41,214 nucleotides of DNA, taken from assembly GCA_016235455.1 (NCBI GenBank), contig JACRKZ010000133.1, positions 1-41,214 on the forward strand, in the 5' to 3' direction. This document shows positions 852 to 36,500 of this stretch, in pieces; the first letter of the stretch is position 1, and every line of letters begins with the position of its first letter. A model generated the notes under the pieces. It was not told where the DNA came from. It saw nothing but the letters and a program-made list of their open reading frames with translations, and did not search any database. The position numbers were made by a program, and so were the translations under genes. The DNA is from Armatimonadota bacterium (lineage in GTDB: Bacteria; Armatimonadota; UBA10988).

Positions 852-3800
852 TCACTCTCCCGCCACCACCTTCCACACCCCCCAATGGCTCGGCGCCAGC
901 CGCGCCTCGCTGGGGATATCGCTGACCAGCGCCGTATCCAGGTTGTTCCAGTAGTCGCGCGCCAGCGTCTGCACGCCGTTGCCGCGCAGGATGCCGATGT
1001 CGCCCAGGCACTGCTCGCCGGCCCGACCGCTCAGCCCCAGCAGCGCCAGCGGCACCGACACCTCGATGTCGCCGCCACGCTGCGCCAACTGAACCTGGTC
1101 GGTGACCACGCGCACATCGTCGAAGCTCACGCGGCCGATGGGCGATTCGTAGAGCTGCGGCCGAGCGCCCGCCAGGCCCGGCGCCACCTGGCGGTAGAGC
1201 ACGGCCAGCGGCTTGCCATGGGCCAGCGTCAGCAGCAGGCGCACATCGCCGGCGACCGGGTCGTTGCGCACGCCGCGGCGGTCGGCCGGGCCGACCAGCA
1301 GGTCCACCGCGCCGCCGCGCTTGAAGGCGAACGGCGGGTCGGAGGCGTCGTTGGCCAGGGCGTCGGCGCGGCCCGTGCGCCAGGCCGCATACAGGCGGTC
1401 GCCGGCGACGGCCAGTGCGCCCGAGCCCGAGGAGCCGATGGTTGCCCAAGTGGCCTTGGACCAGTCGGCCAGGCCGCCATCGACGGTCGGCGCGGTCGCG
1501 CGCAGGGGCACGTTCAGCTCGCCGCGGCCCTGCTTGCGGCCGGGCTGCACCCAGCGTTCGGGCAGCTTGGCCTGAGCATCGGCCGAGAGCGCCACCGTGC
1601 CGAACGCGCGGCGCTTGACCGTGTCGAAACCGTCGATGCGGAAGATCGAGCTGTGCTCCTTGCCAGCCACCATGTACACGTTGCCGTCGGCGGTGCGGGT
1701 GATGGTCGGGTGGAAATGCTCGTCCTCGAAGCTGTAGCCCGAGACGTCCAGGCCGCGCTTGGCCTGGGCGAAGGGGAACAACTCGCCGCGGGACATGTGC
1801 GCGCCCAGCGTGCCTAGATAGAGGCCGTCGCCGGTGAGCAGGTACATGTTGCCGCGCTCGCCGTTGTAGCACAGCACATCACGCGCCTCGCCCCGGCCGG
1901 GCGTGAACGGCGGGCCGAGCAGCCGCGTCGGCTCCACCACATGGCCGGGATACTGGGGTGGCATGAAAGTCGAATCGAGCGACGGATAGCTCCACACCCA
2001 GCGCCCGCCACGATAGGCGCGGAAGCCCTGCACCCAGGTGCCGTCGGCCAGCATGACGCCGCCGTGGCCGTCCTCGGCCCAGTGCTGGTCGTCGTCGGGC
2101 GGCACCAGGAAGGTGGCTTTGCTCAAGTCATACAGCGGCGTGCCGTCGGCGCGGATGGCCGGCGCGGGCAGCCGCAGGCTCCACGAACCATACTGCTCCA
2201 AGCCCGGCCCCGGCCGCCAGTCGCGGAAGCCAAACAGCGGCGCTTTGCTGCCGTCCGCCTTGGTCAGCGTCTCGGCAAAACGGCGCACCTGGAACTCGTC
2301 CTGGGTCACCTTGCCGTCGGCGTTGAGGTCCGTCCAGCAGAGGAACGGCTCGTAGATGCCGCCGGCCTTCTGCAGGTCGCCGATAAACGGCGCGGTGCGG
2401 ATCGACTCCCAGTGACGCATGGAGCCGACATGGCAGACCGGCCGAGCCGTGTGGGTGGCGTCGTCGTAGAGGTAGACCGCGTGGGTGTCGTTGCCGCGCA
2501 AGCCGCCCTGATAGCCGCCCAGCAGATAGAGCCGGCCACCGACGTGCATGGGCAACTCGGGCACCGTCTCGCCATACGTGTGGTTGGGCATCGGATCGTG
2601 CGTGGGTGGCAGGTCGATGTTGCGGATCGGGATGGCCACCAGCCTGGCCGTGCCCGTCTGCCAGTCCAGCCTGAACTCCAGCAGCCCGCCAAACTCGGCA
2701 TAGAAGAAGCGCGTCTTGTCGACCGCGTCGATGGTGCCGCCGCCACCGTAGTGCGGCGGGCCGTAGCGCGCGGACTTGAAGCGGCCGCTGCCCGCATCCC
2801 ACAGGCTGATGCGCTTGGGCAGCCAATCGGCCTCGGCGATCCAGAGCTGACCCTGGTCGTCGATGGCCAGGCCGCACGGCCGGTGCATGCGCTGCTCATC
2901 ATAGACGCCGCGCTGGAACCCGCCCGGCTTGCCAATGACGCGTTTGGGCTGACCGTCGAGGCCGAAGACCTTGACCTGATGACTGCGACCCCAGTCGGCC
3001 ACGAACAGCTCGTTGCCGGCCAGGTTGGTCTGGAGGGTGCGCGGGTCGTCCAGGCCCCGGATCAGTTCGGTGGCGTCGGCCAAGGTCGGCGCGGCGTCGC
3101 CTTCGCGATGCACTGCGTAGCGCTTGACCGTACCCTCGGTGCTGACGAGCAACCGGCCCTGCCCGTCGAGCAGCACGCCCTTGGGCGACGGCACCGGCGC
3201 GGTGCCCAGCGCGCGGCCGCGCTTGACGTCGATGAACAGCACCGCGTTATCCAGCGGCAGCGAGACCGCCGCCAGCCCGTCGCGCACGGACAGCGCCAGG
3301 CCCAGCTCGCGCGGCTCCTTGGGCATCTTGGTCGTCGGCTTGAACTTGGCGATGTCGGGGCCGCCGTCCTTGGTCAGCCCGCGCAACACCACATCCGACT
3401 GCTCGCCCCAGCACATGAGCACGTAGGCGTAGTACCGCGGGTCGCGGTCGGCGCCGAAGTCGGTGGCGGCGGCCTCGCCGCCGTCCCAGCCCCACATGGC
3501 GCGACGCTGGTAGGTCGTGCCGTCGGTGCCCACCCAGACCGTGGTGCGGCCGGCTTCGGCCACCAGCGCGGTGAGCAGCACCTGCGGCTTGCCCCCGCCG
3601 TAGGGCGAGCCCGACGGGATGAAGGTGGCGCCCAGCGGCGACGAGTGGTCGGCCAGCCAGCCGCCGAGGCCGTCCTTGGTCTGCCAGGGCGGGTTGCCGC
3701 CGCTGTACGGCGTGCACTCGTAGATCGTCTTGAGCCCGTCATGCACCAGGCCGCGCGCGGTGTAGGTGCCCGGCGGCACGCGGTGCCGCGTGAGCGTGCC

Positions 3801-4028
3801 GTCCGTGGCGTAGACGCCGTCATCGTAGCCGTCCCAGCTCAGCCGCTGCCGACCGGCGGGCAGGCGCGTCTCGCTGATCAGGTTGCGCACGCGCCGGCCA
3901 CTCGCATCGTCGATGGCGACGGTCACCGTCTGCGGCCTGGCCAGATCGACCCAGATCGGATAGTCGGCGGTCTGCGCACCGGCAATGGCGCAGGCGGACA
4001 GCGAGAGGACAAGCAACAACGACCTCAT
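852..4028 (-). CDS. Large secreted protein: FlgD-like Ig domain, NHL/beta-propeller repeats, C-terminal CBM9-like sugar-binding domain
   Basis: Signal peptide MRSLLLVLSLSACAIAGA. VTVAIDDASGRRVRNL...LSWDG...PPGTY is FlgD_ig-like. LFVADWGRSHQVKVF and GLAIDDQGQLWIAE are NHL-like. APTVDGGLADW...DRLYAAW...IEVSVPLALLG is CBM9/DOMON-like. GAGG RBS. Confidence 0.75.
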   Translation of the reverse strand: MRSLLLVLSLSACAIAGAQTADYPIWVDLARPQTVTVAIDDASGRRVRNLISETRLPAGRQRLSWDGYDDGVYATDGTLTRHRVPPGTYTARGLVHDGLKTIYECTPYSGGNPPWQTKDGLGGWLADHSSPLGATFIPSGSPYGGGKPQVLLTALVAEAGRTTVWVGTDGTTYQRRAMWGWDGGEAAATDFGADRDPRYYAYVLMCWGEQSDVVLRGLTKDGGPDIAKFKPTTKMPKEPRELGLALSVRDGLAAVSLPLDNAVLFIDVKRGRALGTAPVPSPKGVLLDGQGRLLVSTEGTVKRYAVHREGDAAPTLADATELIRGLDDPRTLQTNLAGNELFVADWGRSHQVKVFGLDGQPKRVIGKPGGFQRGVYDEQRMHRPCGLAIDDQGQLWIAEADWLPKRISLWDAGSGRFKSARYGPPHYGGGGTIDAVDKTRFFYAEFGGLLEFRLDWQTGTARLVAIPIRNIDLPPTHDPMPNHTYGETVPELPMHVGGRLYLLGGYQGGLRGNDTHAVYLYDDATHTARPVCHVGSMRHWESIRTAPFIGDLQKAGGIYEPFLCWTDLNADGKVTQDEFQVRRFAETLTKADGSKAPLFGFRDWRPGPGLEQYGSWSLRLPAPAIRADGTPLYDLSKATFLVPPDDDQHWAEDGHGGVMLADGTWVQGFRAYRGGRWVWSYPSLDSTFMPPQYPGHVVEPTRLLGPPFTPGRGEARDVLCYNGERGNMYLLTGDGLYLGTLGAHMSRGELFPFAQAKRGLDVSGYSFEDEHFHPTITRTADGNVYMVAGKEHSSIFRIDGFDTVKRRAFGTVALSADAQAKLPERWVQPGRKQGRGELNVPLRATAPTVDGGLADWSKATWATIGSSGSGALAVAGDRLYAAWRTGRADALANDASDPPFAFKRGGAVDLLVGPADRRGVRNDPVAGDVRLLLTLAHGKPLAVLYRQVAPGLAGARPQLYESPIGRVSFDDVRVVTDQVQLAQRGGDIEVSVPLALLGLSGRAGEQCLGDIGILRGNGVQTLARDYWNNLDTALVSDIPSEARLAPSHWGVWKVVAGE

Positions 4029-4066
4029 GACGTGACCTCGCAGGCACAGGATGGCTGGCGCGAAGT

Positions 4067-4453
4067 CTACCAGATCACGGTCAGGCCAGGCACATCACGG
4101 AGCTTGGTGTCGGCGGTGATCAGCGGCAGACCGGCGGCCAGGGCGGTGCCGGCAACCATGCGGTCGAAGGGGTCGGTGGAGACGGCGCGGGGGATGTTGC
4201 CGGCGTGAAGCGCGGCTGCGACACCGAAGTCCAGCGGCGCCAGCGCGCCGCCTGGGCTGAGGAGTCGCGCCCTGACCCGAGCGATTTCGTCGGGGTTGAG
4301 CCGCCCCACTTGCTCGAGGTAGGCCAACTCCAGCAACGCCACGGTCGGCACGCCGAGCGGCTCATCACAGATGCACTCGGCGGCTCGCCGTGATAGCCGG
4401 TCGGGCTCTCCGAGCAGCTACAGCACCGCGCAGGTATCCAAGACCGCGGTCAC
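4067..4453 (-). pseudogene. vapC: VapC/PIN-domain toxin with an in-frame TAG at codon 12
   Basis: GTG 4453 overlaps the antitoxin stop (GTGA). Reads MTAVLDTCAVL*LLGEPDRLSRRA...LLELAYL...DPFDRMVAGTA...LITADTKL...VIW (128 codons). TAG at 4418-4420 sits where VapC LDTxxxxW usually has Trp. Confidence 0.85.
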
Positions 4454-31449: not shown

Positions 31450-31687
31450 ACGACGAAGCAGGTCTACAACGTCGCCTTCGAGCCCGGGCGAGAGCGGCTG
31501 GATTCTGGCGCGCGTGCCAGAGATCGCCGGCGCGGTCAGCCAAGGCCGCACCACGGCCAAGGCGCGCTAGATGATCGCCGACGCCGTGCAACTGCTGCTC
31601 GAGGTGCGCCTGGAAGATGCTCGGGCGGGCACCGGCTCTACCGCCCCACCTCCAGCCGTCGCACCACCAACTCACCCCCGAAGTTGA
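31450..31687 (+). pseudogene. hicB: HicB-family antitoxin remnant (ACG in place of start, +1 frameshift, internal TAG)
   Basis: (T)TKQVYNVAFEPG / ESGWILARVPEIAGAVSQGRTTAKAR*MIADAVQLLLE. TAG at 31568-31570, extra base near 31489, TG-N-TACACT box at ~31427-31435. No hicA nearby. Confidence 0.8.
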
Positions 31688-33872
31688 TCAGCCGCAGGTC
31701 CGAGCCGCTGTTCTGCCGATGGTCAAGCTTAGGGTTGGGCAGCGTCACCTTCAGTGTTCGCCACTGGCCCGACCCACCCAGCGTGACACCTTCGGCGAAC
31801 GTGTACGGGCCCGTCTCGGAGTCGTACTCGATCGCGAACCGCCCGGTCAGGTCGAGATACTCGATCGTCAGCGTCAGCGGCTGGCCCGGCCGGCGCTCGT
31901 AGCGGTCGTTCACCGCGTAGTAGACGTACTTGATCTGCCCCGCGTCGAGCTTTTGCCGAGCCACGCGCGAGCCCTCGCGGTCGACCAGCTCCCACGGCCC
32001 GTCGGCGGCGCCGCGCAGCGTGAGTCCGCCGTTGGTGCGGTCGGCCTGCCAGGTCACGCTCGGCGCCGGCCAGGCCGGCAGCCGGTGCTCGCCCTGGCGC
32101 TGGGCATAGCGCTTGGCCAGCAGCATGAACGTGTAGGGGTCGACCACGCGCACGTTGGACTCGGGGCGCGCCTTGCCAAGCGCGTCGATGAACTCGCGAT
32201 GCCAGCCGGGGTGGTGCAGGATGGTGCGGTAGGTGATGAAGTCCCAGCCCTCGGCCTTCAGCGTCGATGCCTGCTGCCCGGCGGCCTCCTGCGGCGAGCC
32301 GCCCAAGTCGCTGCGCATGCGCACATACGGCATATCGCCGTGCACGCCGACACTACCGATCTTCTGCGCCACGATGCCCTCGGGCGCGAACTGGGCATAG
32401 GCGTCCAGCCCGGCATCGCTCATGCCGCGCGCGAAGCCGTCGATGACGAAGCCGACAATGCCCAGGTCCCAGCGTCTGGCGTAGGGCTGGTTGTGCGCCA
32501 CCCAGGCGGCGAGGCCCGAGGGCAGCCCGCTGTGCGGTCGCGGCGGCTCCAGCGCGCCGGGATTGAGGTAGCCCGCGCCGGAGTCGCCGGTGATGAACCA
32601 GTCGTTCGGCGTGGCCGATATCCGCGCATAGTGCAGCGCCGGGGCCATGCGGGCCTGGAGGTTCGGGTTCAGCGCCCAGCCCAAGGGCACGCTGCCGCGC
32701 GTCGGGTCGTCCCAGCGCTCGGGGAACATCTGGTACAGCCAGGCCGCCGCATCGTAGTCGCCCACGTAGAACATGATGTAGCTGCCTTGGGTTACCAACC
32801 CGTTGGCATCGAGCAGGCCCCGCGCCTTCAACTCGGCCTCCGTCGGCCGCGCCGTCTGCGGGTAGCGCTCGCGCAGCGGGAAGTGCTGATGGAACGAGCC
32901 GTTGACCAGCCCGCAAGGCCCCAGGGCATCAGCATCCATGTAGGCGTTGTAGGCACTGAGGATCTCGGCGTAGCGCCACTCGGTGGCCACGGGCTCATGC
33001 TTGCCGCCGGCTTCGGCGAAGTTGGTGTACTTGAAGGCCCACGGCACGAACCCGCCGACATGCACCATCTTGCCGCCGTTGCGACCGTAGGCCGAGCGCA
33101 GCAGTTCGTTGAGCGTCCGGTAGTCGCTGCCGACCGCCTGCGCGCGGTCGTCGACGGGCGTCTCGTCGTCCCACGGCAGCAGGTCGAAGAAGAGCGCGCG
33201 GTGGGCGATGAAGTAGTCGTGGTTGGTCAGCGTGCAATTCTGGTGGCCCACATCGCGCCGGGCGGTGAGCCATGCCTGGTCGATGTAGTAGGCCATGACG
33301 GTCGGGTCGCAGCGGCCCGTGTCCAGATACTGCTCGCGCGCCCAGCGGTAGGCCTCGGTCTTGGTGTGCGCCACGCCGCGCAGGTCGCGCACCACCTTCA
33401 GCCGGCCCGAGCCGACCAGGCGCGCATACAGGCTGCCGGCTGACGCATCGAAGCGGATGGGCAGCAGATCCTCGCAGCCGGCCACGGTCGAGGCCAGATT
33501 GGAGCTGGCGGCGAGGTCGGGGTCATAGACGACGACGCCCCGGTACGTCGCGGCATAGCGCGTCAGCAGCGCGTCGAGCGAGGTCTCCTCAACCATGGGC
33601 CGCGCGGCCAGCCACTCGCCGGGCGCGCGCATCTTGGCCAGCCAGTAGTCGTCCCAGCGCGCGATGAAGCGCACGTAGAGGCGGGCAGAGTCACGGTTGA
33701 CCAGCCCTTGCAAGCCCGAAAGGAGGTGCAACTCGTCCCACAGGCGGCGGCGCTGATCGGGCTGGCCCAAATCGAGTTGGGTCAACGGGGTCGCGTCGTA
33801 GCGCACGACCGGTTCGTCGGGCGCGCTAGCAGCCATCATCAGCAGCAGTGGCAAGGCCAGGGGCAGCGGCAT
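31638..33872 (-). CDS. GxGYxYP-motif putative glycoside hydrolase (secreted)
   Basis: Start MPLPLAL at 33872. LQGLVNR..RLYV, YIMFYVGDYD, RGSVPLGWALNP, DSGAGYLNP. C-terminal beta domain (LTIEYLD..G.FAIEYDS). Confidence 0.85.
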   Translation of the reverse strand: MPLPLALPLLLMMAASAPDEPVVRYDATPLTQLDLGQPDQRRRLWDELHLLSGLQGLVNRDSARLYVRFIARWDDYWLAKMRAPGEWLAARPMVEETSLDALLTRYAATYRGVVVYDPDLAASSNLASTVAGCEDLLPIRFDASAGSLYARLVGSGRLKVVRDLRGVAHTKTEAYRWAREQYLDTGRCDPTVMAYYIDQAWLTARRDVGHQNCTLTNHDYFIAHRALFFDLLPWDDETPVDDRAQAVGSDYRTLNELLRSAYGRNGGKMVHVGGFVPWAFKYTNFAEAGGKHEPVATEWRYAEILSAYNAYMDADALGPCGLVNGSFHQHFPLRERYPQTARPTEAELKARGLLDANGLVTQGSYIMFYVGDYDAAAWLYQMFPERWDDPTRGSVPLGWALNPNLQARMAPALHYARISATPNDWFITGDSGAGYLNPGALEPPRPHSGLPSGLAAWVAHNQPYARRWDLGIVGFVIDGFARGMSDAGLDAYAQFAPEGIVAQKIGSVGVHGDMPYVRMRSDLGGSPQEAAGQQASTLKAEGWDFITYRTILHHPGWHREFIDALGKARPESNVRVVDPYTFMLLAKRYAQRQGEHRLPAWPAPSVTWQADRTNGGLTLRGAADGPWELVDREGSRVARQKLDAGQIKYVYYAVNDRYERRPGQPLTLTIEYLDLTGRFAIEYDSETGPYTFAEGVTLGGSGQWRTLKVTLPNPKLDHRQNSGSDLRLINFGGELVVRRLEVGR

Positions 33873-33987
33873 GTCGAGCTCCGAGCGCACAATTGCCCGT
33901 GGATGGCGCCACGCCTTCTTGGCCAGTTGACCGTAACAGCGAGCGCTCTCCGCGTCACCACGACAGAAGGCGACGGCGAGGACTGAA

Positions 33988-34335
33988 CTGAGACGCTGGC
34001 TTGGTGGCGTGGGACGCGCGAGTGCGTGGCTGTGCTTGGCCGCGATGGCGATCGCGGGCAGCGCGCTGGGCTGCCCCTGCGATAACGACCGTCAGGAGCT
34101 CTGCGCACCGGGCAGTTGCGGCCCGTCACCGGACTGTGCCTGCTGCGATCCGCTGCTCGTCCGCCACCATTCACACCAGCCGGTGGTCTGCACGGCCGCC
34201 GTCATCGTCGATACCGCGGTCGCCGCGCCGCCCGACCTGCCCCGACCCAGGCCCGAGCCACTCGCGGCCGCGGCCTGCCTGCCCCTGGTCCACCTGCCCG
34301 CCCGACGAGGGCCCCCGGTGCCTGCCGCTGACTGA
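33988..34335 (+). CDS. Exported Cys/His-rich leader peptide with C-terminal RRGPP arrest-type motif (DUF2946/CutF/CruR-like); start CTG 33988 or GTG 34009
   Basis: (MRRWLGG)[21 protein letters not shown] signal/TM, then CPC...C...C...DCACC...HHSH, a Pro-rich linker, and [16 protein letters not shown] lies 5 nt before CTG 33988. Stop is 55 nt before the next gene. Confidence 0.75.
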
Positions 34336-34386
34336 CCACCCCGACCGCCCGACATGGGCGGTCGCGTTGCCAGCACGAAAGGCACC
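34317..34386 (+). promoter_or_regulatory. Putative RBS-sequestering mRNA structure linking the leader ORF to the pilin-like gene
   Basis: GGTGCCT (34317-23) pairs with AGGCACC (34380-86, within the AAAGG RBS). GCTG (34327-30) pairs with CAGC (34371-74). Inner 9-bp hairpin CGACCGCCC-GACAT-GGGCGGTCG (34342-64). Confidence 0.6.
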
Positions 34387-34390
34387 ATCA

Positions 34391-35038
34391 ATGTCCCATC
34401 AGCAGCGCGGGCGCCGCTCGTCCGCTTTCACGCTCATTGAGCTGTTGGTCGTCATCGCCATCATCGCGATCCTGGCGGCCATCCTGTTCCCCGTCTTCGC
34501 CAAGGCGCGTGAAAAGGCACGCTCCACCAGTTGCCAGTCGAATCTGAGGCAGATCACACTGGCCACGGCACAATACACGCAGGACTACGACGAGAAGGCG
34601 CTGTGCTTCGACCGCGCCTCAGGCTACTCGTGGTTCAGCCCACTGCAGCCGTACATCAAGAGCGCGCAGGTGTTCGTCTGTCCCTCGCTGGGCAGTCGGC
34701 CGGCGAACATCACGGTGCGCACCGATTACGTCGTGAACGGCCTGTTCTGCTGCTTCGCCATGTCGGTCGCGGACTTCAAGACGCCGACAGAGCAGATCCT
34801 GTTCGCGGAGCGGGCCCGGGCCGCCAACGAGGAGGAGTACCACGCGTACTACCTGGGCACCGGCGCGCCCATTGTGGAGTACCAGAATCTGGACCCGGCA
34901 CGCCACCAGGACGGCGCGAACTACGCCTTCGTGGATGGTCACGTCAAGTGGCTGAAGTGGGGCTCGACGCTGGCTCCCAGCAACAACCCCAACATCGGGC
35001 CGACGCTACACAATCGCGAAAACTACCCGGCCCCCTGA
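34391..35038 (+). CDS. Prepilin-type N-terminal cleavage/methylation protein with DUF1559 and H-X9-DG domain
   Basis: [55 protein letters not shown]...YTQDYDE...VFVCPS...[17 protein letters not shown]. Confidence 0.95.
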
Positions 35039-35088: not shown

Positions 35089-35787
35089 CTACTCCATCCA
35101 GTCGACGCGGCCGCTCTTGAGGTCGTAGATGCCGCCGGCCAGGCGCACATTTGCGCCGCCGATGGCCTTGAACAGCACGGGCCGGCTGGCCGCCAACTGC
35201 GCCATCACGTTGCTCACGTTGCACTGCACGGCGTTGGCCAGCGGGTCTCCCTGCAGAGCGCGGCTGCGCACCACGGCCGGCGTGATGGCGTCGATCAGCG
35301 AGCCCACGTAGCCCTCGGGCCGCGCGCGCTTAGCCAGCGACTCGATGGTGGCCTTGACCGCGCCGCACTCGCTGTGGCCGAGCACCGCGATGGTCGGCAC
35401 GTGCAGGTGCTCCACGGCGTACTCGACCGAACCGACGCTGGCCGCGTCGAGCACCTCGCCTGCGCTCCGCACCACGAACAGTTCACCGAGGCCGGCATCG
35501 AAAATGAGCTCGGGCGGCACCCGCGAATCGGAGCACGCCACGACCACGGCATAGGGGTGCTGCCCCTCGAGCAGGTGCTCACGCCGGCTGGCCGACTGGC
35601 CGGGATGCTGCGGATGGTCGGCCACGAAGCGGGCGTTGCCTTGCTTGAGCCGGACCAGGCCGTCGCGCACATCCGTGTCGGGCTCGGAACCGACCTTGAC
35701 CAGCGAGACCGCGACGAACAACGCGGCCAGCCCCACCACCAGCACCAGGGCCAGTGTCTTGACCTGGTCTCGTTCCCTCTGCATCAT
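35089..35787 (-). CDS. Beta-class carbonic anhydrase with N-terminal membrane anchor
   Basis: LKQGNARF, GQHPYAVVVACSDSRVPPELIFDAGLGELFVVRSAG, VLGHSECGAV. Hydrophobic LALVLVVGLAALFVAVSLV. GGAGG RBS 9 nt before ATG 35787. Confidence 0.93.
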   Translation of the reverse strand: MMQRERDQVKTLALVLVVGLAALFVAVSLVKVGSEPDTDVRDGLVRLKQGNARFVADHPQHPGQSASRREHLLEGQHPYAVVVACSDSRVPPELIFDAGLGELFVVRSAGEVLDAASVGSVEYAVEHLHVPTIAVLGHSECGAVKATIESLAKRARPEGYVGSLIDAITPAVVRSRALQGDPLANAVQCNVSNVMAQLAASRPVLFKAIGGANVRLAGGIYDLKSGRVDWME

Positions 35788-35858
35788 GGCGTTCATCCTC
35801 CCAGCACCGTCCATTGTCGCACGGATCGCGCTATCATCAACCGCCGGAGGCCAGGGCG

Positions 35859-36500
35859 ATGACCACCGCACAAGCGGTCGACCAGCAACTGGCGCTACGC
35901 GCCGCGGTGCGCACCGAGCCGCTCGACATAGCTAAGGTGCGACTGGTGGCTGGTGCTGACATCTCCTATCGTCGCTGGGACGAGGATCTGCGCGTGGCCA
36001 TCACCGTGGTCAGCCTGCCTGATCTGGCGCTGGCGGAAGTGGTGACGCTCACCACGCGCTCACCGTTCCCGTATGTGCCGGGCCTGCTGAGCTTCCGCGA
36101 GCTGCCGCCGCTGCTGGCGGCGTGGCAGCAGTTGCGAGTGCGACCCGATGCCCTGCTCTGCGACGGCCATGGCCGCGCCCATCCGCGGCGCTTCGGGCTG
36201 GCCTGCCACGCCGGCCTGACGCTCGACCTGCCGTCCGTGGGCTGCGCCAAGTCGGTACTGGTTGGCCGGGCCGAGCCGCCGGGCGACTGGCGCGGCGCCA
36301 CTAGCGAGTTGCGGCTCGATGGCGAGGTCATCGGCCGGGCGCTGCGCACGCGAGCCGGCGTCAAGCCCGTCTACGTGTCCGTGGGCCACCGCGTGACACT
36401 CGACGACGCGGTCGCCCTGGTGCTGGCCTGCCAGCGGAAGTACCGGCTGCCCGAGCCCACACGGCTGGCCCACCAGCAGGCGCAGCCGCCGCGCGCCTAG
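35859..36500 (+). CDS. nfi: Endonuclease V (deoxyinosine 3' endonuclease)
   Basis: VAGADISY, FPYVPGLLSFRE, CDGHGRAHPRRFGLACH, VGCAKS, PVYVSVGH, YRLPEPTRLAH. GGAGG RBS; TATCAT box at 35832. Confidence 0.96.
   Translation: MTTAQAVDQQLALRAAVRTEPLDIAKVRLVAGADISYRRWDEDLRVAITVVSLPDLALAEVVTLTTRSPFPYVPGLLSFRELPPLLAAWQQLRVRPDALLCDGHGRAHPRRFGLACHAGLTLDLPSVGCAKSVLVGRAEPPGDWRGATSELRLDGEVIGRALRTRAGVKPVYVSVGHRVTLDDAVALVLACQRKYRLPEPTRLAHQQAQPPRA

Follow-up and report, generated by a model that had tools for sequence, protein, structure and literature searches.

A candidate ribosome-arrest leader upstream of a DUF1559/H-X9-DG pilin-like gene, and its relatives in Armatimonadota

The leader reading frame and the pilin gene

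We analysed a 41,214-nt stretch of DNA from an Armatimonadota bacterium (GenBank assembly GCA_016235455.1, contig JACRKZ010000133.1), hereafter the window, which is contig C91 of a 6.5-Mb, 185-contig genome and has a G+C content of 70%. The element in question is a short open reading frame (ORF), here called the leader, that precedes a gene for a prepilin-type DUF1559/H-X9-DG protein, here called the pilin gene (Table 1). An initial annotation had proposed that the leader is a metal-sensing ribosome-arrest peptide and had described it as a Cys-rich ORF of about 110 residues. The ORF and its motifs were confirmed: 108 codons encode a hydrophobic N-terminus, 10 Cys residues (positions 9, 22, 24, 32, 37, 43, 45, 46, 61 and 90, which include CPC and CACC), four His residues, the HHSH motif and an RGPP motif five codons before the stop codon. 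Read from the translation, the hydrophobic stretch (approximately residues 4–21) is preceded by an Arg, subject to the uncertain start codon, and a Pro-rich stretch lies between HHSH and RGPP. Both CACC (residues 43–46) and HHSH (residues 53–56) are putative Cys/His metal-type motifs. The start at 33988 given by the initial annotation did not stand, as this position is an in-frame CTG, an unusual start codon. We assumed the GTG at 34009; TTG at 34036 and ATG at 34045 are in-frame alternatives, and the true start is uncertain. The G+C content of the leader by codon position (0.77/0.64/0.83) follows a coding pattern, with the third position highest and the second lowest, and this signal was better than that of the four alternative frames tested.

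The leader is predicted to be the first gene of an operon with the pilin gene on the same strand, and the 55-nt gap between the leader stop (34335) and the pilin ATG (34391) agreed with the initial annotation. The pilin matched DUF1559 (PF07596, E 1.3e-11), N_methyl (PF07963, E 2.4e-08) and H-X9-DG (TIGR04294, E 7.6e-08), each above the curated cut-off. The AlphaFold2 model of the pilin (pLDDT 89.9) comprised a long N-terminal helix and a beta domain, and a fold search with this model returned weak type IV pilin matches only (best E 0.11). Two Cys residues are nearly invariant in DUF1559 proteins and occupy positions 48 and 97 of the window pilin. The pilin frame is open for 390 nt 5' of its ATG (34001–35038) and overlaps the leader, which is read in a different frame. 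The resulting 345-aa ORF is an artefact of high G+C that gene-calling software could select, thereby hiding the leader. We rejected a pilin start at 34001 because the extension lacks the coding GC pattern and homologs start near the prepilin motif.

RNA folding of the spacer gave a minimum free energy (MFE) of -23.4 kcal/mol, compared with -16.0 kcal/mol for shuffled sequences (z -2.6, 200 dinucleotide shuffles). The G+C-rich hairpin in the spacer was ruled out as an intrinsic terminator, as no T-run follows it.

Table 1. Features at the leader–pilin locus and its two flanking genes (window coordinates)
Feature	Position	Strand	Basis or remark
Leader ORF, 108 codons + TGA	34009–34335	+	GTG start assumed; frame open from 33937
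Hydrophobic uncharged N-terminal segment, ~residues 4–21, then Cys	34018–34071	+	Translation; signal peptide or membrane anchor
Cys cluster CPC ... CACC, residues 22–46	34072–34146	+	Translation; absent from other leaders
HHSH, residues 53–56	34165–34176	+	Translation; HxxH 43 residues before Arg of RGPP
RGPP, residues 100–103, proposed stall site	34306–34317	+	Translation; five codons, then TGA
9-bp G+C-rich hairpin, 5-nt loop, in 55-nt spacer	34342–34364	+	RNA folding
Weak Shine-Dalgarno-like GAAAGG before pilin ATG	34377–34382	+	Sequence
Prepilin-type DUF1559/H-X9-DG protein, 215 aa	34391–35038	+	Pfam, NCBIfam; leader-linked clade
H-X9-DG C-terminal motif, residues 170–189	34898–34957	+	TIGR04294, E 7.6e-08
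GxGYxYP-family putative glycoside hydrolase	31638–33890	-	Pfam; divergent from leader
Beta-class carbonic anhydrase	35089–35871	-	Pfam; convergent with pilin

The frequency of the terminal motif was assessed among all stop-to-stop ORFs of at least 60 aa in the whole genome. R[AG]PP occurred within the last 14 residues of 151 of these 57,295 ORFs (0.26%), and only four of the 151 had a prepilin motif within 330 nt downstream: the window leader, one ORF each on contigs C41 and C70, which are near-identical to each other, and a further ORF on contig C159. The C159 ORF is Arg-rich, 69 aa long and without a hydrophobic segment, and was read as a chance match.

Conservation of the leader–pilin pair in Armatimonadota

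The genome encodes at least 105 DUF1559 paralogs. The closest paralog of the window pilin was the C41 copy (62% identity), and in four other genera belonging to its family the top matches showed 53–56% identity. Leader ORFs of 109–128 aa, with a membrane segment, CxxC and R[AG]PP 2–4 residues before the stop codon, were present 5' of the C41 copy and of three of the four genus matches. A scan of relatives with a pilin alignment, using one genome per species, returned 80 loci. In other species, nine of the eleven pilin relatives ranked best had a leader ORF 5' of the gene, against none of the 69 lower-ranked loci, where the few pattern matches had neither hydrophobic segment nor CxxC.

A FastTree phylogeny of 191 DUF1559 proteins grouped 14 of the 15 pilins that have a leader into a single clade of 18 rows (SH-like support 96), where the C41 pilin and the window pilin are sisters. 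The leader label was as clustered as observed in 0 of 500 shuffles, and the leader and this pilin clade are co-inherited. The initial annotation had named missing conservation of the ORF 5' of orthologous pilin genes as grounds for abandoning its proposal; an upstream ORF ending in R[AG]PP was found for 14 of the 18 clade pilins. The clade also has conserved residues of its own (His151, His207, Arg141, Asp112 and Trp190 in the window pilin), which are rare in the other 173 proteins. Flanking genes vary between loci, and the conserved unit is therefore the leader–pilin pair. These results show that the association of leader and pilin is well supported at the level of the family.

To describe the leaders themselves, we aligned 13 pilin-linked leaders (alignment A5) and extended them with further ORFs to a 57-leader profile, for which the further 42 leader ORFs kept were required to carry R[AG]PP in the last 14 residues. 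Columns without variation in A5 were those of the first Cys, one Pro, R-x-P-P and a His that follows the membrane segment. CxxC was present in 11 of the 13 leaders, and all 11 had a CxxC–R[AG]PP separation of 41–44 residues. An N-terminal membrane segment was present in all leaders, the tails after PP comprised 1–5 residues, and the leader–pilin spacers measured 48–127 nt, with one of 199 nt. Mean column identity was 27%, and the sequence outside the motif evolves quickly. The ratio of nonsynonymous to synonymous differences (pN/pS) was 0.17–0.54 in all 42 leader pairs tested; the relatives' leaders are therefore translated and under purifying selection. The genomes that carry the leaders range from 43 to 71% G+C.

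The 13-leader profile matched 58 of 401 Armatimonadota genomes and 34 of 207 genera. Among the 60 profile matches, 57 were testable, of which 28 had a prepilin motif within 420 nt and 29 had none; 2 lay at contig ends and 1 was spurious. The profile was trained on pilin-linked leaders, so this pilin share of about half is biased upward. The non-pilin partners included a TonB-receptor-like protein (CarboxypepD_reg + Plug), ExbB, a PEP-CTERM protein and unnamed coiled-coil proteins. The initial annotation had placed the pilin gene in the position that TonB receptors occupy elsewhere, and the same leader family does precede TonB-receptor-like and ExbB genes in other Armatimonadota. DUF2946 (PF11162) was the Pfam family matched by most A5 members, at sub-threshold scores (5 of 13 at E ≤ 1, best E 0.0094), and 7 of 201 Armatimonadota genomes had DUF2946 matches over the cut-off. 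The phylum ORFs over this cut-off also precede receptor-like genes, as read from the translations. Profile–profile comparison of the leaders with these phylum DUF2946 ORFs gave a probability of 87–88%, but over only 18–23 columns (the membrane segment or CxxC) and was not counted as proof of homology.

Several leader loci had particular features. The ends of C41 (57418–58202) and C70 (38891–39675) share, in reverse orientation, a 787-bp overlap that is 95% identical, and a canonical leader and a pilin start are present on each. The two leaders differ in the Pro-rich part and are identical in the membrane segment, CxxC and RGPP tail; the two ends may be recent copies, or else a single locus present as two strain variants, at which the assembly broke. 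At locus L047 (G040:C1, ~4019692–4020018, - strand), a leader ORF scoring 25.2 bits, over the DUF2946 cut-off, contains an in-frame TAG eight codons before RAPP. Its CxxC–RAPP spacing is 43 if the TAG is counted as a residue, and it precedes a DUF1559 prepilin gene outside the clade; recent pseudogenisation, a sequencing error or read-through of the TAG could each explain it. Locus L049 (G141:C119, 1411–2124) has two tandem DUF2946-like leader ORFs, each with CxxC and a RAPP near its end, before the next gene. The 199-nt spacer of L012 (G005:C45) forms a very stable long hairpin (MFE -125.5 vs -91.4 kcal/mol shuffled, z -7.0) and looks like an inserted palindromic element. At L038 (G004:C42), a 615-aa ORF without a Pfam match (2386–4233) lies directly 3' of the leader-linked pilin on the same strand; at most other leader–pilin loci the next gene is convergent.

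In the window, the neighbouring genes are divergent and convergent, and leader and pilin therefore stand alone as a pair. Neither the GxGYxYP gene nor the carbonic anhydrase gene recurred beside the leader–pilin pair in the other loci examined. A sigma-70 promoter scan, which is uninformative for this phylum, found no site, and Rfam returned no family, its single row being a chance snoRNA match (E 0.37). A metagenome scan with the pilin alignment used generic patterns and returned generic DUF1559 loci. It recovered 98 prepilin motifs, 81 of them with 450 nt or more of upstream sequence, and no leader was found at any of them; at the top-ranking locus (L134), only 332 nt of upstream sequence was present, and it contained no leader. 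Contigs of four metagenome runs piled up at 34427–34525, with a summed depth of hundreds to thousands and many variant letters. This segment encodes the nearly invariant N-terminal helix of DUF1559 genes, to which paralogs and other organisms cross-map.

Relation to known leaders and alternative explanations

The leaders were compared with two metal-related leader peptides that the initial annotation had named. CruR (Bordetella pertussis Bp2923, PF11162) is copper-responsive and lies 5' of a TonB-dependent transporter operon. According to the CruR study, members of DUF2946 share an export signal, a CxxC and a RAPP that is followed by three residues up to the C-terminus; the CxxC–RAPP spacing is about 45 residues and varies by no more than one or two, and the N-terminal signal is a signal peptide or an Nin-Cout membrane segment. 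RAPP arrests CruR translation, and copper alters the arrest via CxxC and hence Rho-dependent termination (PMC9426467). The architecture recognised by the initial annotation was borne out for the Armatimonadota leaders: like CruR, they are small first genes with an export signal, they carry a metal-type motif whose distance to a C-terminal R-A/G-P-P near the stop codon is fixed (CruR, 45 residues; Armatimonadota, 41–44), and some precede TonB-receptor-like and ExbB genes. The window locus differs from CruR in that a type IV pilin-like DUF1559 protein is encoded downstream, 55 nt instead of 162 nt separate the two genes, PF11162 is unmatched by the window copy and sub-threshold in the relatives, and the window copy has HHSH in register instead of CxxC, plus an extra Cys cluster.

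CutF of Rhodobacter capsulatus (cutFOG) is an exported nascent-chain sensor with a Cys/His motif, a Pro-rich stall site at the C-terminus, action in cis and a stem-loop in a short spacer, features that the leaders would share. CutF stalling melts a stem-loop that masks the ribosome-binding site of the next gene (PMC9973294; bioRxiv 10.1101/2025.02.05.636593). His-only variants are known among CutF-like proteins, and such clusters adjoin HupE/UreJ (Ni/Co-related) genes (PMC9973294). The present case differs from CutF in having R[AG]PP as its motif and a hairpin located 5' of the Shine-Dalgarno-like site, and only for a few loci does RNA folding predict that a stalled ribosome would unmask the start. 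RAPP and RGPP are named together among RAPP-like arrest sequences in the abstract of a further study (PMC12992588).

The window leader fits this family by position, hydrophobic N-terminus and RGPP with its 5-residue tail, and both the tail and the 55-nt spacer lie inside the family ranges. Its HxxH (residues 53–56) lies 43 residues before Arg100, in the register where the relatives carry CxxC. We therefore propose, with a probability of roughly 0.55, that the window leader is a cis-acting regulator of the CruR/CutF kind and a divergent copy of an Armatimonadota family that is inherited with one DUF1559/H-X9-DG clade. On our reading of the sequences, the window copy may have diverged fast after duplication of the module, exchanging a Cys-type for a His-type motif.

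A number of results weigh against this proposal. The initial annotation had suggested a profile search of the leader against DUF2946; the window leader had no Pfam match, DUF2946 included, even at E ≤ 10, and so stayed below the PF11162 gathering score (23.7 bits). It had no NCBIfam match, and a word-based protein search returned nothing. An exhaustive search of 1.84 billion protein representatives gave one match (E 1.9e-4), a 491-aa protein aligned in 7 stretches. Nothing convincing was found in 40 relatives, and nothing in the metagenome contigs. The 13-leader profile gave the window leader -3.0 bits. With the 57-leader profile it reached 7.9 bits (E 9.1), which placed it at about rank 75 among the 57,798 ORFs of the genome, and hhalign gave a probability of 18% for the window leader against the leader family. 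CACC lies 53 residues from Arg100, compared with 41–44 in the family; the HxxH register was noticed post hoc, and by a rough estimate it would arise by chance with a probability of ~0.08 (about 1 in 12). The third-position GC of the leader (0.83) is lower than that of the neighbouring genes (0.88–0.91), and its uncertain start codon has no clear Shine-Dalgarno sequence. At the level of the pair, the fourth genus match (G002, 93% complete) had no leader, none was found in a same-genus genome (80% complete), and 4 of the 18 clade pilins are without one: the two genes of L054, L058 and the G002 gene. For the copy in the window, the finding is moderately supported. A profile search of all three forward frames detected no frameshifted canonical leader in another frame. 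The protein-language-model 'recognition' value of the window leader (2463) was in the range of real proteins, and its neighbours in a protein atlas were unnamed or transmembrane clusters, with DUF6769 and DUF6660 at 0.94–0.95; with few shared features, these are leads only.

Arrest peptides of the SecM, MifM, VemP and ApdA/ApdP class respond to export pulling force. The leader could likewise be a real arrest leader that senses the envelope redox or disulfide state, or Sec/YidC export pulling force, and not metal, in which case pilin synthesis would match export or oxidative-folding capacity; we judge this improbable, although it survives best among the alternatives. The leaders would have in common with ApdA/ApdP and SecM the R-A/G-P-P core, arrest at the peptidyl-transferase centre, a secretion or membrane signal at the N-terminus and control of the gene downstream. 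Such sensing is favoured by the membrane segment at the N-terminus of every leader, by the two near-invariant DUF1559 Cys residues and by the 10 Cys of the window copy. RAPP-type arrest peptides tied to the protein localisation machinery are also known (bioRxiv 10.1101/2025.02.05.636593, PMC10987492), and the CutF authors propose that disulfide formation in the exported part aids stall release. However, the fixed 41–44 CxxC spacing, together with the conserved His that follows the membrane segment, resembles the pattern of the CruR family, which responds to copper, and the same leader family precedes TonB-receptor-like and ExbB genes, typical partners in metal uptake and not export machinery. 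ApdA/ApdP and SecM, which monitor export, sit 5' of Sec/YidC genes and are without a conserved CxxC or His at fixed spacing, whereas the gene 3' of the window leader encodes a prepilin-type DUF1559 protein, an export substrate and not a Sec/YidC pathway component.

The window ORF might also be the decayed remnant of a leader, or a frame that is open by chance in a 5' region of 70% G+C, its sensing motif lost after module duplication and its pilin free of leader control. The lack of detectable family similarity, the out-of-register CxxC and a codon-position GC signal weaker than that of the neighbours are consistent with this, as are the 4 of 18 clade pilins that do without a leader and the overlapping pilin frame, whose extension back to 34001 shows how easily a long ORF originates here. 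Nevertheless, the frame is intact over 108 codons, with a hydrophobic N-terminus, RGPP at the right distance from the stop codon and a family-typical 55-nt spacer, and only 0.26% of the genome ORFs end with such a motif. One natural variant in the leader, 34050 G>C, was present in DNA contigs from two runs of another study and is synonymous in our reading; as a single site, this environmental variant is very weak evidence against decay. We regard a relic or chance frame as unlikely.

Least probable is that the ORF yields a small Cys-rich protein, secreted or anchored by lipid, with a protein-level function of its own, for example as a metal- or redox-active partner of the pilin, with a non-regulatory RGPP: the hydrophobic segment ends in Ala-Leu-Gly-Cys, which would fit a lipoprotein signal by the PROSITE lipobox rule, 10 Cys and four His lie within 108 residues, and the language-model value and the small unnamed or transmembrane nearest clusters suit a real protein, but R[AG]PP 1–5 residues from the stop codon is invariant in the 13 aligned leaders, the remainder evolves fast (27% mean column identity), which fits a cis-acting leader over a folded protein, the window sequence had no relatives in the word-based and exhaustive protein searches described above, and CutF is reported to be undetectable in vivo (PMC9973294).

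Proposed mechanism and meaning for the pilin-like family

If the window leader acts as a cis-acting regulator of the CruR/CutF kind, the peptide would be made with an N-terminal export or membrane segment, and peptide-bond formation would slow once the ribosome arrives at RGPP. The residues ~42–48 back, which are CxxC in the relatives and HHSH in the window copy, would by then just have exited the tunnel, and metal binding, oxidation or pulling on them would decide how long the ribosome dwells. The dwell time would in turn set the expression of the pilin gene 55 nt downstream, either by refolding of the mRNA near the pilin start or by shielding of the transcript from termination. Translation of the window copy, its stalling, its ligand and the sign and route of regulation are all conditional on this scheme, which we infer from the motifs and from the better-known leaders.

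To assess the first route, we forced a ribosome footprint open at RGPP in RNA folding. The predicted unpaired probability of the pilin start region in the window rose from 0.49 to 0.67, compared with 0.47–0.50 for control footprints placed 30 or 45 nt upstream, and the same forced opening gave 0.32 to 0.53 for C41 and 0.37 to 0.47 for C70. The mean over 15 loci, however, rose only from 0.39 to 0.44, against 0.40–0.42 for the controls, and only 3 of the 15 spacers folded better than shuffles at z < -2, though most hold a hairpin; both results count against the proposal. A stalled ribosome that generally unmasks the pilin start was rejected, since the effect is not general across the 15 loci. 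The results are compatible with a CutF-like translational and with a CruR-like transcriptional route, and with either sign of response.

Literature searches turned up no description of such a leader paired with DUF1559/H-X9-DG pilins, in line with what the initial annotation had stated, though the supplements of the CutF and CruR papers may hold single cases. The main text of the CutF paper does not treat pilin or DUF1559 partners, and DUF1559, prepilin and Armatimonadota are absent from it; the legend of its Fig. 7B lists a 'PILIN' signal class among the types scored for CutF-like proteins and for the proteins encoded downstream (PMC9973294). CruR/CutF-type leaders are already known; the pairing with DUF1559/H-X9-DG genes, the spread in Armatimonadota and the co-inheritance with a pilin clade do not appear in the main texts consulted. 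The window pilin shares the N-methylation motif, the DUF1559 region and the H-X9-DG C-terminus with the DUF1559/H-X9-DG proteins of Planctomycetota, Verrucomicrobiota and Armatimonadota, and differs from them in belonging to a clade that has its own conserved residues and carries a leader.

DUF1559/H-X9-DG proteins occur in dozens to hundreds of copies in Armatimonadota and the Planctomycetota/Verrucomicrobiota group, and in the literature searched, where DUF1559 is named in only 4 papers, we found no experimentally supported function for them. The sequence comparisons suggest that one branch of this pilin-like family may be switched on or off by a metal-sensing nascent peptide. A further-reaching reading, which we put forward only tentatively and consider rather doubtful, is that one DUF1559/H-X9-DG clade is a metal-responsive envelope component under a sensor of the CruR/CutF kind, and that this genome has two modules with different sensors and ligands. 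The pilin might then be, for example, a metal-binding pseudopilus subunit for uptake or detoxification, with a Cys-type module on C41/C70 and a His-type module in the window, for instance for Cu and for Ni/Co/Zn, respectively. The window copy, with His at the CxxC register, would be a natural test of how the motif sets ligand specificity. A conserved, co-inherited leader of the copper-sensing type would be the first regulatory clue for one DUF1559 clade and, if true, would extend the targets known for CruR/CutF-type sensors, which are transporters, oxidases and chaperones, to include pilin-like proteins, and the range of these sensors to a phylum that has been little studied.

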